From positions 211,327 to 275,326 of the forward strand of contig MTOH01000001.1 in assembly GCA_002011615.1 (NCBI GenBank): 64,000 nt of DNA, given 5' to 3'. The first letter of the stretch is position 1. Each line of letters opens with the position of its first letter. Source of the DNA: Candidatus Hydrothermus pacificus. GTDB taxonomy: Bacteria; Hydrothermota; Hydrothermia; Hydrothermales; Hydrothermaceae. The notes beneath the pieces were generated by a model. It made no database searches. It worked only from the letters and a program-made list of their open reading frames with translations, and was not told the origin of the DNA. Shown here piece after piece: positions 2,447 through 60,063 of the stretch. A program made the position numbers and the translations under genes.

Positions 2447-3853
2447 TTACGGTTTTATAAGTTTAACCTCTTTCAACTTTTTCTGGTTTAAAAACAAAGA
2501 AAGAAAATATATTCCTGCAGGCAAATTGGATATTTTTTTGTCCGAAAGAATAAATAACGGGGTATTAAAAGAACAAAGAGATTTGAAAACAAGAATTCCA
2601 CTGGAATTGTAAAGTAACAACCATATCTTTTTTTCTGTAAAATCCTTTGCCTTAATAAATATCCTATCTTTAAAAAAAGTGGGTATAAAAAAAGAATAAC
2701 TTTTTGAAGAATAACTTTCTTTTATTCTTAAACTCTTTTGTTTTATAAGATAGACATCGTATTCACCTGAACCGAATGAATTAGTCCAACCAGAAATTAC
2801 ATATCCACTATCAGAAGTAATTTCTATCCAGTATCCATAATCATCACCTGTTCCACCCAAAGTTTTTTCCCAGAGGAGATTTCCTGAGGAATCTGTTTTT
2901 ACAAGATAAACATCTTTATAATTTGCACCAGGGGAATCCATCCACCCCACGATGATAAATCCTTTATCTTCTGTCTCTTTAAGGGAATATCCAAAGTCAT
3001 TGCCCACTCCTCCATATGTCCTTTCCCATATCAGATTACCAGTTGAATCTACTTTTATAAGATAAACATCGTATCCACCTGAGCCGTATGAATTGGTATA
3101 TCCTACAACTACATATGAATTATCATATGTCTCCTTCACACAATAACCAGCTTCTGACTCAAGCCCCCCGAATATTCTTAGCCACTCAACACTCCCTGTG
3201 GAATCTAACTTGGCAAGATAAATATCTCCTTTATCTGCGCCAAAAGACCTGGTATATCCTGTTATGATATAACCACTATCCGAGGTCTGTTCAACAGAGT
3301 ATCCCCTATCTGTATTATAACCACCGTATGTCTTTTCCCAGATTATATTTCCTTGGGAATCTGTTTTTAAAAAATAAATATTTGAGACAACTTGTGTATA
3401 TCCTATGATAATGTATCCTCCATCCTGAGTCTGTTCAACCTCATAACCGCATTGATCAGAGGAACTTCCGTAGGTTTTTTGCCAGATTAGATTTCCATTT
3501 AAATCAACTTTTATAAGCAAAATATCATATCCTCCTGCCCCATATGAACAGGTATGTCCCACCAGAACATATCCATCCTGAGTTTCTTCCACACAAAACC
3601 CCATATCCTCAACCTCACCACCGAATGTCTTACTCCATTCCAGATTTCCCAGTGAATCTGTTTTTAAGAGATAAATATCACTGTATCCCGAGCCAAAAGA
3701 ATAGGTATACCCCGTAATTATATATCCTTTATCAGAAGTTTGCTTTACTGAATATCCCCCATCCGAATACGCACCCCCGTAAGTTTTTTCCCATGCTCTA
3801 AGATGAAAAATGCAGAGGATTAAAAAAACAATTATTGTATTATATCTCTCCAT
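2447..3853 (-). CDS. Secreted 7-repeat beta-propeller protein with T9SS-like C-terminal domain
   Basis: Signal peptide; seven ~50-aa repeats W.KTYGG...GY.V.QT.D.GYII.G.T.SFG.G..DVYL.K.DS.GN; C-terminus LPAGIYFLSL...VKLIKP. Confidence 0.8.
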   Translation of the reverse strand: MERYNTIIVFLILCIFHLRAWEKTYGGAYSDGGYSVKQTSDKGYIITGYTYSFGSGYSDIYLLKTDSLGNLEWSKTFGGEVEDMGFCVEETQDGYVLVGHTCSYGAGGYDILLIKVDLNGNLIWQKTYGSSSDQCGYEVEQTQDGGYIIIGYTQVVSNIYFLKTDSQGNIIWEKTYGGYNTDRGYSVEQTSDSGYIITGYTRSFGADKGDIYLAKLDSTGSVEWLRIFGGLESEAGYCVKETYDNSYVVVGYTNSYGSGGYDVYLIKVDSTGNLIWERTYGGVGNDFGYSLKETEDKGFIIVGWMDSPGANYKDVYLVKTDSSGNLLWEKTLGGTGDDYGYWIEITSDSGYVISGWTNSFGSGEYDVYLIKQKSLRIKESYSSKSYSFFIPTFFKDRIFIKAKDFTEKKIWLLLYNSSGILVFKSLCSFNTPLFILSDKKISNLPAGIYFLSLFLNQKKLKEVKLIKP

Positions 3854-14290: not shown

Positions 14291-15442
14291 TTAATCAAGT
14301 AATTCTTTAAAATCAGAAACAGCATCAAGCTTTTCCCATGAAAATCCTTCTTCTTCCCTGCCAAAGTGACCATAACACGCGGTCTTTCTGAAAATAGGTT
14401 GAAGCAACTCCAGATATTCTATTATTCCTCTTGGAGAAAGGTCAAATCTTCTCTTTATGAATTCAATGACCTTTTTTTCAGGTACTTTACCTGTCCCAAA
14501 GGTGTCTACAAATATTGCAACAGGTTGATTAACTCCTATAGCGTAGGCAAGCTGTATTTCACATTTTTTTGCAACACCTGCAGCCACCATGTTTTTCGCG
14601 AGATATCTCGCCATATAAGCTGCTGACCTGTCAACCTTTGTAGGGTCCTTTCCAGAAAAACAACCTCCTCCATGTCTTGAGTATCCCCCATAAGTATCAA
14701 CCATTATCTTTCTACCGGTCAAACCTGTATCTGCCTGGGGTCCACCTATAACAAACCTTCCTGTAGGATTTATAAAATACTTTGTTTCCTCATCAGCTTT
14801 GATTTTTTCCTTTTTCAAAATATACTCTATAACATGCTTATACACGTCGTCTCTCAATTCCTCTATGTTTATGTCAGGGTCATGCTGAACTGAAAGGACA
14901 ACTGCTTCCACCCTATAAGGTTTCCCACTCCTGTACTCTATAGTAACCTGAGATTTACCGTCGGGTCTCAGATAATTCAGGATTCTATTCTTTCTTATCT
15001 CTGAGAGTCTTCTGACAAATTTATGAGCGAGCATAATTGGAAGAGGCATAAACTCCGGGGTCTCATCTATAGCAAACCCGAACATCATCCCTTGGTCTCC
15101 TGCCCCTCCTGTATCAACTCCCATGGCTATATCTCCTGCCTGTTCCTGAATGGATGTCAGAACAGCAACAGACTCATAATCCATACCATATACAGGATTT
15201 GTATATCCCGCTTTTTTAACCACATCTCTAACCACATCAGGAATCTCAACATAACATTCTGTTGTTATTTCTCCTGCCACTATAAGCATCCCCCTTGTGG
15301 TAAGAGCTTCAATAGCAACCCTTGCCTGCTTATCTCTGCCTATTATCTCATCAAGAATAGCATCGGATACCTGGTCACAGATTTTATCAGGATGTCCTTC
15401 TGTAACAGACTCGGATGTAAATATAAAATCTTTTTTCTTCAT
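14291..15442 (-). CDS. metK: S-adenosylmethionine synthase
   Basis: [25 protein letters not shown]. Confidence 0.97.
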
Positions 15443-31391: not shown

Positions 31392-32249
31392 CTAAAAACT
31401 CTCTTTTAAAAGATCTGCAACTTTTTCAAGAAAGACTTTATCTCTTGTTGTAAAGGCAGAGGGCATATCTGAATCTATATCTATCTCACCTACAATCCTG
31501 TCACCTTTTTTTATGGGTATAACTATCTCAGACTTTGTGGACGGAAAACAGGCAATATATCTCGAGTCTTTTTTTACATCATCAACTATTATGGTCTGCC
31601 CTTGTGCAACCGCTGCCCCGCATATTCCACTTCCGATGGGAATTCTTTTATGTTCTGTCTCTTCAGAGCCTTTCCATGGTCCAAGAACCAGTTCATTTCC
31701 ATCCACAATGTATATACCAACCCAGTTATAATGTTTAAAATTATCATAAAGCAGTTCCACAGTCTTTTCAAGTAAGTTATCAGGGCTTCTATCTTTCAAC
31801 CATTTTACCTCTTTTAACACGCTTTCCATCTTCAATTTATCCTGTGAAACATCAAGTTCTTCTTCCCAGGTAATTATTGAATGATAATATATTTCATCAC
31901 CTTCGTCAATGCCCCTTGTAATCTCTGAAATATGAACAGAAGTTGCTTTAAATTCTCCAAGAATATAATTGACCGCATCTTCAGGTTTTGAATGCTCCCC
32001 ACAGGTGTATATATCCAGAGCAGCATACTTATGTTCTGGCCATGTATGTATTGAAAGATGAGACTCTGAAATCACTATAACTCCTGATACACCGTTGGGT
32101 GGGAACCTGTGAAAAGAAACAGCCCACACCTGAACATTTGCCTTCTCGGCTGACCTTACAAGTATGTGCTGAACTCTCTCCACATTACCTATTATTTCGG
32201 GGTCACACCCCGATGCCTCCACAATATAATGTTCACCTATGGTTTTCAT
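31392..32249 (-). CDS. speD: S-adenosylmethionine decarboxylase proenzyme fused to fRMsr-like GAF domain
   Basis: GVSGVIVISESHLSIHTWPE and DIYTCG; C-terminal NWVGIY...LGPW.G...GICG...YIAC...SEIVIP...GEIDIDS. Confidence 0.85.
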   Translation of the reverse strand: MKTIGEHYIVEASGCDPEIIGNVERVQHILVRSAEKANVQVWAVSFHRFPPNGVSGVIVISESHLSIHTWPEHKYAALDIYTCGEHSKPEDAVNYILGEFKATSVHISEITRGIDEGDEIYYHSIITWEEELDVSQDKLKMESVLKEVKWLKDRSPDNLLEKTVELLYDNFKHYNWVGIYIVDGNELVLGPWKGSEETEHKRIPIGSGICGAAVAQGQTIIVDDVKKDSRYIACFPSTKSEIVIPIKKGDRIVGEIDIDSDMPSAFTTRDKVFLEKVADLLKESF

Positions 32250-37141: not shown

Positions 37142-37251
37142 TTCCTTCACTGTTTCAAAACCTGTCAGAATGATTCATATTTTTCACTTTTCACCTTTAA
37201 CCTCCAACTCTTTGCTTTTCACCCCTTTTCTTTCAACTTTCACTCAAATCC

Positions 37252-46301: not shown

Positions 46302-46336
46302 TTTCGGGGGTGTAGCTCAGTGGGAGAGCACTGCCT
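46302..46336 (+). repeat. attL: tRNA-Ala 5' fragment (tRNA nt 1 at 46306)
   Basis: tttcGGGGGTGTAGCTCAGTGGGAGAGCACTGCCT, identical to 60107-60141. Confidence 0.95.
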
Positions 46337-46840: not shown

Positions 46841-47322
46841 CTCACACCTATCCCCGGGATAAAATTTTTATCTTTAAAATTATATTGGACAAAAAAACTC
46901 AAAAATTTATATGAAAGTCCTATATGAATATTGGAGAAAGTAATTCCTGCAAAAACCTCTCCATATTTTTCTTTTTTAGGACCTTTAAAAATGGATTTAA
47001 AAATAACTTTTTCTTTTTGAAATATTTTATATTCAAAATTTCTAAAAGTATCCGCTTCAAACTGAATTTCAAGAAGTGAATCCCGATACTTAAAAAGTTT
47101 CCATAAAATAGGTTTATATATTGTTTCCTGTTTTGCGGACGGTATTTTAATAATTTGAAATTCATAATAGGGTATGGTATCCTTAATCGGTTTAATTTTT
47201 TCAACCATAACCGGGATTTCAATTTCAAATTTCGGTTTAATTAAAAAAGAATAAATCAAAAGCCCTGTTAAAAGACCGAGTATAAATCCGTATAGAAATC
47301 TAAAAAAGCGAGATTTGTTCAA
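46828..47322 (-). CDS. Membrane-anchored protein with C-terminal beta-strand/aromatic end
   Basis: N-terminal TM (FLYGFILGLLTGLLIYSFLI); ends GIGVRWQF. Confidence 0.55.
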   Translation of the reverse strand: MNKSRFFRFLYGFILGLLTGLLIYSFLIKPKFEIEIPVMVEKIKPIKDTIPYYEFQIIKIPSAKQETIYKPILWKLFKYRDSLLEIQFEADTFRNFEYKIFQKEKVIFKSIFKGPKKEKYGEVFAGITFSNIHIGLSYKFLSFFVQYNFKDKNFIPGIGVRWQF

Positions 47323-47845
47323 TTGATTCCCTCAAGTCTTCAAGTTCAATATTTAGATATATTTTAAGAAATGAATATCCTGAGTGTCCCAAAGCTCTTC
47401 TTACATTCTCAAGATTTTCTCCTTTTTTCAGGAGCATTGTCGCAAAATAATGTCTGAATACATGTGGGTTAAGTCCGTATTTCTGATAGAATAAAAAGAC
47501 TGCCTGTCTTGTGATATTCCATATTTTCCCTTTTTTCTCTTCTTCTGGAAACTTCAAAAGAGCTTCATAAACTTTTGAATGTAGTGGTATCTCCCTGGTT
47601 ATTTTCTCTCTTTTTTTAAGCTGCACTACCCAGGCGGTTCTTTCTTCAAAGTTGACATCTTCCCACTTTAAGGAGAGTGCTTCTGAAATTCTGAGACCCT
47701 GTAATATTAAAAATCTTGTTAATGACCAGTATTTCCATCTTTTTAAATCTTCAGGGTTCTCGCTGTACCATTCCTCAATTTTTTTAATTGTTTGCCTAAC
47801 CCTTTTTAATTTTTGCAGTATTTCAGGTTTTAGATGGTATTCCAT
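47300..47845 (-). CDS. Small tyrosine recombinase (catalytic domain only)
   Basis: GLRISEAL, HVFRHYFAT, LGH, IY: complete R-H-R-H-Y set in 181 aa. Confidence 0.88.
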   Translation of the reverse strand: MEYHLKPEILQKLKRVRQTIKKIEEWYSENPEDLKRWKYWSLTRFLILQGLRISEALSLKWEDVNFEERTAWVVQLKKREKITREIPLHSKVYEALLKFPEEEKKGKIWNITRQAVFLFYQKYGLNPHVFRHYFATMLLKKGENLENVRRALGHSGYSFLKIYLNIELEDLRESIEQISLF

Positions 47846-47858
47846 GAGATTTCAGGCA

Positions 47859-47890
47859 GGGGGGGATAGGAAATTTCCCCCCCTTTTTTT
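47859..47890 (+). terminator. Intrinsic terminator on the plus strand
   Basis: GGGGGGGA-taggaaatt-TCCCCCCC-TTTTTTT. Confidence 0.75.
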
Positions 47891-57945: not shown

Positions 57946-58361
57946 GACCCACCTCCTGCTCTAATTTTCAGGAGTTCTCTGGGGTTTTTAGCGACCCCGG
58001 AAACTCCTGTATCAGAAAAAAAATATTTCCGGAATTTTCCGGGTTTAATCACCCACCAATAACTCACTTTTTCTCCTGTTTTAAAAACAAAAATTCTTCC
58101 TTTCGGATTAAATTCATTCCATGCCTGTTTATAAGAAAAAGCAAAAGTCAGTTTAGAATTTTCAAGGAATTTTCTTGGATCCGAAATATACCACCATTTT
58201 TCTTTATTCAAATCCAGGACAATCTTATTAGGATAGGCATAGAAATTATCATAACAGGTTTTACATATATATCCTTTTTTCTCTACTCTAAAAAATTTCC
58301 TTTTAATTTCGATAATTTCTCTTCCAATGGACCTCATTCCACACAGATCACAGAGTTTCAT
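57942..58361 (-). CDS. Zn-finger-like hypothetical protein
   Basis: CDLC...CKTC; overlaps the integrase stop. Confidence 0.55.
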   Translation of the reverse strand: MKLCDLCGMRSIGREIIEIKRKFFRVEKKGYICKTCYDNFYAYPNKIVLDLNKEKWWYISDPRKFLENSKLTFAFSYKQAWNEFNPKGRIFVFKTGEKVSYWWVIKPGKFRKYFFSDTGVSGVAKNPRELLKIRAGGGS

Positions 58362-59887
58362 TTTCTAATTCCTTTTTTATCTTCAAGTTCCTTTAATTTT
58401 TTTACATTATAAATTTCCATAATCAAATGGTTTACAAATTCAACCATTGGATTTCTTTTATTTTCTCTTAATGGGTGGATATATCCTTCGGTACTGTGAT
58501 ATGATACCCATCCTCCCAATTCTTTAATGATTCTCATTGGAGTCCCCATATCCTCTGCTCGTGTAGCCCAATTATGTCTGAAATCATGAAAATAAAAATT
58601 CTCTATTTCACATTTTTTCAAGAATTCATTATAAAACCATTCGGTAAATCGTCTTTGTTGATATCCTGTCTGAAAGTCAGGGAAAAGCATATCAGAACCT
58701 TTTGATACAGATAATAAAAACATAGCGAGTCCATAAGGGATTTCAATTTTTCTTTCTTTCCCTGTTTTTGTAATATCAGATGTAAAATGAATCATTCCAT
58801 ACATTTTATCATCAATTTTAACAATTCTCACATGTTCCTTTCTCAGTTTAAAAATTTCTTCTTTCCTTGCTCCGGTAAAGAGCCCAATCCATAAAATTCC
58901 TCTTTTCTGTTTATTTATTCTATCATCAGGTAACTCAAGAGTTGCCTTTAGAAATCTTATGGTTTCCTCATAAGATAGAACTCTCTTTCTTCTTTTTTCT
59001 TCAAATTTCCTCTCTTTTAGAATTTTATCTGCATAATTAATTCCTGTAAAATATCCATTTCTCAAAAGGTAATTCCACACTGCATTTAAAAATTTCAACT
59101 CACTTTTAATTGTTGATTCAGTAATGTATTCTCCTGTTTTTTCACTTTTATCTTTAAGTCTTTCGTTGATGTAATTTTCCAGGGTGATCTCATTAATTTT
59201 ATACCAAGGGAAATCTTCTCCCCATTTTTTAAAAAATCCGCTTAATCTATGGAAAAAATATCTTAATTTCCCGAGGTCTTGTTTCCTGGAGAAATGATAT
59301 TCAGCATAGATTTTCACTCCTTCTCCGAATGTCAAATCTCTTTTATTTTTTATCTTTTCCCTTGCAATTTCCCGTGCAAAAGCCTCTGCCTCTTCATAAG
59401 TGTCAAAAAGATATGATTTAACTTTTCCTTCTTTTTTTATCTGTATTAACCACTTCCTTCCATGCTTTCTAATTTTCGGCATTCTTTTATCCAGTTTATG
59501 AATTACAGGTTTTTTGGATTCCATCTTAGGGGTTCTTTCATACTTTATCTTTTTTTCTGCCTCTTTCAAAATCTCTTCTTTATATTTTTCTGCATCTTCT
59601 GATATTTTAAGTTGTTTCTCAATAACCATTTTTATTCCTGCCTTCCATGCGGTTTTATAATCTTCAAAAAACATCCTTTTTCTTATTCTTTTTCCTGTTT
59701 GTGGATCCTTTCCGAGTTGAATTTCCACTCTCCATTTTTTACCTCTTCCTGTTTTATAAGGTGTAGGTATTCTGAGCCATTTAAGACCCATAATGAGATG
59801 CTTTCCGTCCTGTGAAATTTGATATTCCTTTCCCTTATACCTTACAATATTATTATGGATTTCAATTTCAGGAAGTTTTTCTTCCAT
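58358..59887 (-). CDS. Tyrosine integrase with two N-terminal arm-binding-like domains
   Basis: TGARKEEI, FHDFRHNWAT, LGGW, TEGY; KWRVEI...RKRMFF and KWLIQI...SYLFDTYEEAEAF. Confidence 0.93.
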   Translation of the reverse strand: MEEKLPEIEIHNNIVRYKGKEYQISQDGKHLIMGLKWLRIPTPYKTGRGKKWRVEIQLGKDPQTGKRIRKRMFFEDYKTAWKAGIKMVIEKQLKISEDAEKYKEEILKEAEKKIKYERTPKMESKKPVIHKLDKRMPKIRKHGRKWLIQIKKEGKVKSYLFDTYEEAEAFAREIAREKIKNKRDLTFGEGVKIYAEYHFSRKQDLGKLRYFFHRLSGFFKKWGEDFPWYKINEITLENYINERLKDKSEKTGEYITESTIKSELKFLNAVWNYLLRNGYFTGINYADKILKERKFEEKRRKRVLSYEETIRFLKATLELPDDRINKQKRGILWIGLFTGARKEEIFKLRKEHVRIVKIDDKMYGMIHFTSDITKTGKERKIEIPYGLAMFLLSVSKGSDMLFPDFQTGYQQRRFTEWFYNEFLKKCEIENFYFHDFRHNWATRAEDMGTPMRIIKELGGWVSYHSTEGYIHPLRENKRNPMVEFVNHLIMEIYNVKKLKELEDKKGIRK

Positions 59888-59940
59888 TTTAAGCCTCCTT
59901 TAATTCCGGAGGTAAAGGATTCGAACCTTTTACCCTCCGG

Positions 59941-60032
59941 AAAATTTGTTTACCTTTTTGTTTACTTCCTAAAAAACATAAAACTTTCATTTTCAATGAT
60001 TTTTAAAAAATTTGTTTACCATTTTGTTTACC
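59941..60032. repeat. Candidate integrase arm-type sites: two pairs of TTTGTTTAC(C/T)
   Basis: 59945 and 59957; 60011 and 60023; 12-bp period within each pair. Confidence 0.7.
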
Positions 60033-60063
60033 ATAAAAAATTTATTAAAAATTTCATATTCAC

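Follow-up and report, generated by a model that had tools for sequence, protein, structure and literature searches.

A stable stem-loop with a T-arm-like core directly upstream of the integrase ribosome-binding site in a Candidatus Hydrothermus pacificus provirus: most likely a leader structure, with tRNA mimicry unproven

The integrase gene of a provirus in the genome of Candidatus Hydrothermus pacificus is preceded by a 39-nt stem-loop that has a T-arm-like core and ends just ahead of the ribosome-binding site. The hairpin lies in a 64-kb window, by which we mean the whole stretch of DNA that was analyzed, and it is real and probably functional. An ordinary structure of the leader is its most likely identity, not a proven tRNA-mimic switch. 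The explanation that we favor, with a probability of roughly 45%, is a stable structural stem-loop in a long 5' leader of the integrase mRNA that keeps the Shine-Dalgarno (SD) sequence free and shields the message, while control would be exerted mainly by the integrase at arm-type sites. An earlier note on this DNA had proposed a tRNA mimic or a captured tRNA 3' remnant that toggles integrase translation; a tRNA-mimic switch is unproven and not conserved.

Results

The hairpin upstream of the integrase gene

Read on the minus strand, the region has the order UUCCGGAGG-GUA-AAAGG-UUCGAAU-CCUUU-A-CCUCCGGAA-UUA-AAGGAGG-CUUAAA-AUG, and the letters are exactly those that the earlier note reported. 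The stem-loop (59904..59942, minus strand; -20.2 kcal/mol, z -3.57) has an outer stem of 9 bp, formed by UUCCGGAGG and CCUCCGGAA, and a T-arm-like core, AAAGG-UUCGAAU-CCUUU (59914..59930, minus strand), with a closing pair of the G53-C61 type and with the U54 and A58 positions present. The minimum-energy fold consists of the 9-bp stem, a 3x1 internal loop, a 5-bp stem, and the 7-nt loop UUCGAAU, in agreement with the earlier description of a 5-bp T-loop stem on a 9-bp stem, the internal loop lying between the two. In the centroid fold, two bulges take the place of the 3x1 internal loop, and the helix comprises 14-15 bp in total. The energies were -20.0 to -20.2 kcal/mol, with z-scores of -2.85, -3.57, and -3.54 for segments of 49, 47, and 91 nt, respectively, and the hairpin was retained at 37, 55, and 70 C in the fold of the full predicted leader. 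The SD sequence of the integrase, AAGGAGG (59894..59900, minus strand), follows 3 nt past the 3' end of the hairpin and precedes the AUG (59885-59887, minus strand) by 6 nt, so that the position directly upstream of the ribosome-binding site is confirmed.

To place this stability in the context of the genome, we folded the 48 nt ahead of the GGAGG SD of 408 open reading frames of Candidatus Hydrothermus pacificus. These leaders had a mean energy of -4.4 kcal/mol (sd 3.7). The integrase leader took rank 2 and is much more stable than the genome's other SD-proximal leaders (n=408), rank 1 being an obvious terminator. A strict T-arm motif (5-bp stem, GG..CC closure, UUCRANY loop) occurs genome-wide outside tRNA genes only in the integrase hairpin and in tmRNA, the core is unique within the 64-kb window, and no second copy of the hairpin was found in the window or in the genome. 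An intrinsic (rho-independent) terminator was rejected as an identity of the hairpin, as no terminator-like site exists on either strand between 59700 and 60250 and no U-tract follows the hairpin.

All 14 stem pairs of the hairpin are Watson-Crick pairs, and its DNA is a perfect palindrome except for the loop and the bulges. A slightly lower energy was obtained for the plus strand (-20.6 kcal/mol, z -4.21). As both strands thus fold equally well, a role of the RNA is not separable by folding from a role of the DNA palindrome or of a plus-strand RNA. A small plus-strand open reading frame after the GGAGG of the hairpin was rejected by eye, since it has no ATG, GTG, or TTG and the sole reading crosses the arm repeats.

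Integrase gene, promoter, and arm-type repeats

The integrase gene (58358..59887, minus strand) encodes a tyrosine recombinase of 509 aa with a long N-terminal region (PF00589, E 6e-13, residues 317-473; phrog_1). Residues 51-71 gave a weak hint of Arm-DNA-bind_4 with an E-value of 0.018, which is below the cut-off. The N-terminal region contains two similar modules (GRKW/GKKW ... F-D/E-x-Y-x-x-A) at residues of about 40-85 and 137-180, and the integrases of the more distant relatives L005 and L091 have a further copy of the GRKW/GKKW type at the C-terminus. These modules may read paired arm repeats.

Two such pairs lie in the P arm. The int-proximal pair (59945..59965, plus strand) has TTTGTTTAC at 59945 and 59957 and is 2 nt from the hairpin, and the core-proximal pair (60011..60031, plus strand) has it at 60011 and 60023. 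These are four exact copies of TTTGTTTAC in the P arm, with one other in the 64 kb. Upstream of them, a sigma-70-type consensus promoter facing int is predicted (TTGACA-N18-TATAAT, 60064..60093, minus strand; 12/12 matches). It is located within 20 nt of the att core, with the four arm-type repeats between promoter and hairpin. The predicted int leader of ~170 nt includes the arm sites and the hairpin, which is ~115 nt from the predicted start. With the consensus promoter and the arm repeats upstream of it, the hairpin falls inside the predicted leader, and, provided that int is transcribed from this promoter, it belongs to the integrase leader.

A promoter-like sequence on the plus strand, TTGATA-N18-TACAAT, lies at 59819-59848 of the window within int codons ~14-23 and points to the tRNA. 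It recurs at the same int codons elsewhere (L004 1165-1136, L005 2900-2928, L006 2880-2908) and was present in all five loci, which represent four distinct elements. Resampling of synonymous codons gave p-values of 0.065, 0.30, 0.60, 0.59, and 0.07 for the five loci. A conserved antisense or tRNA-directed promoter in int codons 14-23 was therefore rejected, as the motif is expected from the amino-acid sequence and A+T-rich codons.

Provirus and attachment sites

The provirus is 13.8 kb long, is integrated in tRNA-Ala(CGC), and is bounded by a perfect 35-bp direct repeat (46302-46336 = 60107-60141); the hairpin sits in its P arm. The cargo includes a glucosaminidase-type lysin, an HNH protein, and a second small recombinase. 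The att repeat comprises 4 nt of leader and the 5' half of tRNA-Ala(CGC), the last base being the one that precedes the anticodon. The attR copy of this identity block (60107..60141, plus strand) is 100% identical to the attL copy (46302..46336, plus strand), a displaced tRNA-Ala 5' fragment behind the host promoter region. As the element replaces the tRNA 5' half, it must supply the tRNA promoter.

The integration target, the reconstituted tRNA-Ala(CGC) (60111..60181, plus strand), matches the Rfam tRNA model with 58.9 bits and has a one-base deletion in its loop. The anticodon loop of this tRNA (60111-60181) has 6 nt, UCGCAC, with position 32 missing, and ARAGORN cannot type the tRNA. The position of the missing base coincides with the right edge of the att repeat, and four relatives of the same family have 7-nt loops, CUCGCAC or UUCGCAC. 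The target tRNA-Ala may have been damaged by the integration or may be decaying.

Elsewhere in the provirus, a G7/C7 hairpin preceded by an A-run (47859-47890) is located 13 nt ahead of the small-recombinase open reading frame (47300-47845, minus strand). It is of the plus-strand terminator type and was rejected as a relative of the integrase hairpin.

Related elements

The integrase family is rare, with 13 proteins in a large protein search. Members of it besides those compared below (P0002-P0006, P0010, and P0011) have integrases that are 51-58% and 41% identical. Phylum-wide and collection-wide scans yielded four independent elements that were readable, and one relative, G046, has the hairpin. 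Besides the element in the window, these are G084 (5.2 kb, target tRNA-Thr(GGT)), G086 (about 3.4 kb, target tRNA-Thr(CGT)), and G046 (about 5.1 kb, target tRNA-Ala(GGC)). In all four, the att identity block begins 1-4 nt ahead of the tRNA and has its other end precisely at U33, the base preceding the anticodon, and int is divergent from the tRNA at a distance of 220-310 nt. The att blocks of the relatives are at L251 5431-5465 and 10705-10739 and at L253 11257-11291 and about 14712-14746, and those of G046 are at G046:C3 about 37200-37233 and 32067-32101.

The earlier note had suggested covariation in related elements as a check. When this comparison was run, an equally stable hairpin was found in G046, with a different loop, and none was found in the more distant relatives. 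By MAFFT alignment, the intergenic region of G046 is collinear with that of the window and has many base differences; the identity is ~60% by rough estimate. Its P arm has the same consensus promoter at the same position and with the same score (L004 894-923, plus strand), with the flanks AAACACTTGACAAATAA kept, as well as two tandem-repeat pairs that differ in sequence from those of the window. Arm-type tandem repeats analogous to those of the window and different in sequence are in fact present in all relatives. The G046 stem-loop has an energy of -20.1 kcal/mol, the loop GUCCCA, and an end a few bases before AAAGGAGG. Both hairpins have a purine-rich 5' arm of the GGAGG type and a 3' arm of the CUCC type. 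Their sequences differ and each is self-complementary, the G046 arms being complementary to each other and not to the window arms. The tRNA likeness is absent from the G046 hairpin, which has a non-T loop and scored 10, a value reached by 526 of 1000 shuffles.

The G046 integrase (L004 1090-2650) looks broken, with no standard start codon and a frame change near residue 145. As this is the single hairpin-bearing relative, conservation of the hairpin rests on one comparison, which the broken-looking integrase weakens and does not cancel, since a drifting hairpin would not keep 12 pairs. A frame change after ~83 residues also affects the integrase of L011/L006 (L011 2501-4163), and the changes in both proteins are due either to decay or to assembly errors.

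No stable fold before the SD was detected in the more distant L005, L091, and L006 (the latter equivalent to L011 and L092). In L005 and L091, inspection by eye revealed a TTGACA/TATAAT pair near the SD with a 20-nt spacer, which is outside the range of the promoter scan. The hairpin was therefore found only where the promoter precedes the arm sites, in the window element and in G046, which indicates that it goes with the long-leader layout. We also note that the P arms of L091 (about 35-50) and L005 (about 3115-3125) have CUUUACCUCC and CUACCUCC, respectively, after the arm repeats on the int strand, and that L091 has the 10-mer CTTTACCTCC in common with the 3' side of the window hairpin, with no hairpin forming in L091. 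The element at tRNA-Thr(CGT) has inverted int-proximal arm repeats; they fold into an 11-bp hairpin with TTTTTT behind it (L006 3031-3060, int strand), a terminator-like site upstream of int.

Accessibility of the Shine-Dalgarno sequence

As the CCUCC of the 3' arm is complementary to the GGAGG of the SD, it was in principle possible that the hairpin alternates with an SD-sequestering structure, as the earlier note had proposed. Such pairing is possible, but only in folds that lack the 5' arm. It appeared only after removal of the 5' arm, and the resulting fold was marginal at 70 C. With the hairpin present, the central SD bases had a predicted probability of being unpaired of at least 0.9 at 37, 55, and 70 C. 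Two mutually exclusive folds of comparable stability were not found, the hairpin at -20 kcal/mol being opposed by a weak SD-pairing alternative. A toggle of translation by SD pairing is thus not supported, because the sequestering fold is far weaker than -20 kcal/mol and the SD is predicted to be free from 37 to 70 C.

Resemblance to tRNA

We scored the tRNA likeness of the hairpin against cut-down tRNAs, composed of the 5' end, the T arm, and the 3' end, for all 46 host tRNAs. The best match was the target tRNA-Ala(CGC) with a score of 16, followed by Val with 15, two Ser with 14, and Tyr with 13. A score of at least 16 was reached by 3 of 1000 structure- and composition-preserving shuffles (mean 9.1, sd 1.4). 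Together with the genome-wide rarity of the motif, this result makes it unlikely that the tRNA look of the window copy is pure chance. The hairpin is ~78% like a deletion derivative of tRNA-Ala(CGC), and by manual count it matches the tRNA-Ala 3' half at 19 of 24 aligned positions, so that the resemblance claimed in the earlier note does exist, but it is not clearly better than that to tRNA-Val, Ser, or Tyr. Because the target tRNA-Ala tops the 46 host tRNAs by just one point, a specific derivation from it was rejected, and we treat the hairpin as generically tRNA-like.

Regarding the individual features of a tRNA, a 7-nt UUCRANY T-loop with closure of the G53-C61 type on a 5-bp stem is present in AAAGG-UUCGAAU-CCUUU. 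A continuous 12-bp stack of acceptor stem and T arm was not found in the hairpin, the 3x1 internal loop splitting it into 9 bp and 5 bp. The stem is followed by UUAAAGGAGG and lacks CCA, the absence of which is not decisive, since most host tRNA genes do not encode it either. The pair equivalent to 3:70 is A-U. A search of 59700-60300 with Rfam covariance models (tRNA, tmRNA, viral tRNA-like, mascRNA; cmscan, E up to 10) matched the real tRNA only, which was also the only match of the mascRNA model RF01684, at 20 bits. The hairpin was therefore rejected as a member of a known RNA family. The proposal of a tRNA mimic accordingly divides, in that the likeness is hard to obtain by shuffling, but the T-loop and the likeness are absent in G046, Rfam gives no match, and the helix has 14-15 bp and not 12.

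The other proposal, a captured tRNA 3' remnant, was not supported in the form of a recent capture or of an att remnant. The 22-mer AAGGTTCGAATCCTTTACCTCC of the hairpin is absent from 185,579 species genomes, and a version with one N is absent from viral contigs; on this ground, recent capture of a real tRNA end was rejected. A displaced tRNA fragment or att site was also rejected, as the hairpin is on the opposite strand and single-copy, and the att repeat proper, formed by the tRNA 5' half, lies elsewhere.

Discussion

The leader hairpin that we favor would act as follows. Transcripts would be initiated at the consensus promoter next to the att core, run through the four arm-type integrase sites, and arrive at the hairpin 3 nt ahead of the SD. 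Within the hairpin, the CCUCC tract, which resembles an anti-SD, would be locked to GGAGG, an SD-like decoy, and in this locked state the hairpin would keep the true SD single-stranded and separate the ribosome-binding site from the A/U-rich leader. Its most likely role would in this manner be that of an insulator or stabilizer of the leader that protects the message from 5'-end-dependent decay after leader cleavage and guarantees access to the SD. Binding of integrase at the arm sites between promoter and gene would give negative autoregulation of int. We infer the transcription start, the stabilizing role, and the autoregulation. The job of the hairpin would depend on its form and not on its tRNA likeness, and the T-arm look of the window copy would have arisen by accident in this lineage or would be left over from tRNA-derived sequence. 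As the T-arm likeness is unlikely to have arisen by chance, its treatment as incidental is a point against this explanation.

Four other explanations have to be weighed against the leader hairpin. We consider it unlikely that the hairpin acts at the level of DNA or of the plus strand, with the 39-bp near-palindrome being part of the attP P arm, for example as a site for an excision factor or a host bending protein or as a cruciform, or structuring a transcript that runs from inside int toward the tRNA as an antisense RNA or as an element-supplied tRNA leader. The slightly better fold of the plus strand, the 14 of 14 Watson-Crick stem pairs, the arm-type repeat just 2 nt away, and the need of the element to provide a promoter for the tRNA whose 5' half it replaces would all suit such a role, as would TTGATA-N18-TACAAT in int codons 14-23, which recurs in four other loci from three further elements. 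The protein sequence and A+T-rich codons, however, are sufficient to explain this motif (p 0.065-0.60), no U-tract follows the hairpin on either strand, the half-sites are 30 bp apart from center to center, unlike those of usual dimer operators, and L005 and L006 have no counterpart. A very improbable alternative is that there is no function at all, the hairpin being a product of chance or a decaying relic, for instance a tRNA fragment left behind. It was singled out after 64 kb had been read, and it has neither a second copy nor an RNA-family match. A chance origin is at odds with its rank among the 408 leaders and with the equally stable hairpin at the same position in the collinear but diverged P arm of G046 (~60% identity, a rough figure), and the absence of the 22-mer from all 185,579 species genomes and from viral contigs argues against recent capture.

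The hairpin could also be a tRNA-derived mimic of the acceptor stem and T arm. RNase P, RNase Z, or enzymes of the TruB/TrmA type would then bind or cut the leader, freeing a short-leader int mRNA or changing its stability, as tRNAs punctuate some transcripts. We regard this as rather doubtful. It is consistent with the canonical UUCGAAU loop with its G-C closure stacked on a stem, with the 3' strand ACCUCC and the 5' strand GGAGG-GUA, which resemble tRNA acceptor strands followed by U8-A9, and with the finding that the element's own target, tRNA-Ala(CGC), scored best of 46 host tRNAs (score 16; 3 of 1000 shuffles equal). The hairpin is moreover the sole one of this type in the genome outside tRNA and tmRNA genes, and it adjoins an integrase whose family always targets tRNA genes. 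Against a mimic stand the homologous G046 hairpin, which has neither T-loop nor tRNA likeness, the more distant relatives without any hairpin, a bulged helix of 14-15 bp instead of 12 bp, and the lack of CCA or a discriminator-like context. In addition, the 3:70-equivalent pair is A-U in place of the alanine-identity pair G-U, tRNA-Val, Ser, and Tyr score just 1-3 points lower than tRNA-Ala, and there is no Rfam match. Quite improbable in our view is the more specific version, in which a cut-down target tRNA-Ala, reduced to acceptor stem and T arm without D and anticodon arms, has been co-opted for tRNA-processing enzymes, so that cleavage would shed the arm-site leader and tie integrase production to tRNA maturation. 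We give hardly any credence to an SD-sequestering switch in which the CCUCC of the 3' arm alternates between the 5' arm and the SD and turns integrase translation on and off. The complementarity of CCUCC to GGAGG, the pairing of the two once the 5' arm is gone, and the CUCC-rich 3' arm adjoining AAGGAGG in G046 fit a switch. The alternative structure, however, has a helix of 5 bp closing a 9-nt loop and is marginal at 70 C (-2.1 kcal/mol for the whole fold, against -20 for the hairpin), the SD is predicted to be unpaired in every full-length fold, and a trigger that would open the 5' arm is not evident.

Stem-loops that stabilize bacterial mRNAs from the 5' leader are found in the ompA and aprE leaders, where they are at the very 5' end of the transcript. 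The window hairpin resembles them as a strong stem-loop near a strong SD that has no terminator tail and leaves the SD predicted free. It differs in that the predicted transcript start is ~115 nt upstream, and a stabilizing role would therefore need prior cleavage of the leader. With a tRNA minihelix or the tRNA-like domain of tmRNA, the hairpin has in common the 5-bp stem, the G-C closure, and the UUCGAAU loop on a G/C-rich acceptor-like stem. It differs from these by its 14-15 bp with a 3x1 internal loop, by the lack of CCA, of G3-U70, and of a covariance-model match, and by a T-arm feature that is not kept in the homologous G046 hairpin. Processing signals that resemble tRNAs also occur in longer transcripts, as in the case of the MALAT1 mascRNA (RF01684), the punctuation of mitochondrial transcripts by tRNAs, and the cleavage of some bacterial mRNAs by RNase P. 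Under the mimic reading, a fold like that of a tRNA in the transcript would similarly direct cleavage and define message ends; unlike for mascRNA, models of the RF01684 type do not match the window hairpin, whose cleavage is hypothetical.

An integrase promoter overlapping the att region and negative autoregulation are established for tRNA-associated integrases, as described for KplE1 intS (PMC2951348). As in KplE1, int adjoins the att site in a tRNA gene, a promoter is predicted in the att arm, and arm-type repeats lie between promoter and gene. This layout of the module, with the promoter at 60093-60064 and four downstream arm-type repeats as predicted here, is kept in G046. Regulation in KplE1 is by protein binding to DNA, and a leader hairpin is not described in the abstract of that study (PMC2951348). 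In contrast to KplE1, int of the window is oriented away from the tRNA, whose 5' half the element replaces.

If the hairpin is a leader structure only, our analysis adds one detail on integrase expression by a newly recognized provirus of an uncultured bacterium. If, on the other hand, the tRNA likeness were functional, a bacterial mobile element would make use, in its own mRNA, of a signal shaped like a tRNA; such a case would be of interest for RNA processing and lysogeny control.

The att setting of this family has a parallel in the pTN3-like archaeal integrases, for which an att identity block formed by a tRNA 5' half has been reported (PMC8371274) and which the window family resembles by its blocks in tRNA-Ala(CGC), Ala(GGC), Thr(GGT), and Thr(CGT). 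Among archaeal integrases, only the pTN3-like ones are described to have a 5'-half attB, and in bacteria recombinant tRNA genes reportedly retain their own promoter, apart from very few exceptions (PMC8371274). The hosts of the window family are bacteria, unlike those of the pTN3-like integrases, and int is not split by integration; the likeness is one of att setting and not of the hairpin. Recombination at a tRNA 5' half is a rare arrangement, so far described for archaeal pTN3-like integrases (PMC8371274), and a bacterial integrase family that recombines there with a block ending at U33 merits separate study. The U33-ending att block mirrors the classical anticodon-loop class of att sites.
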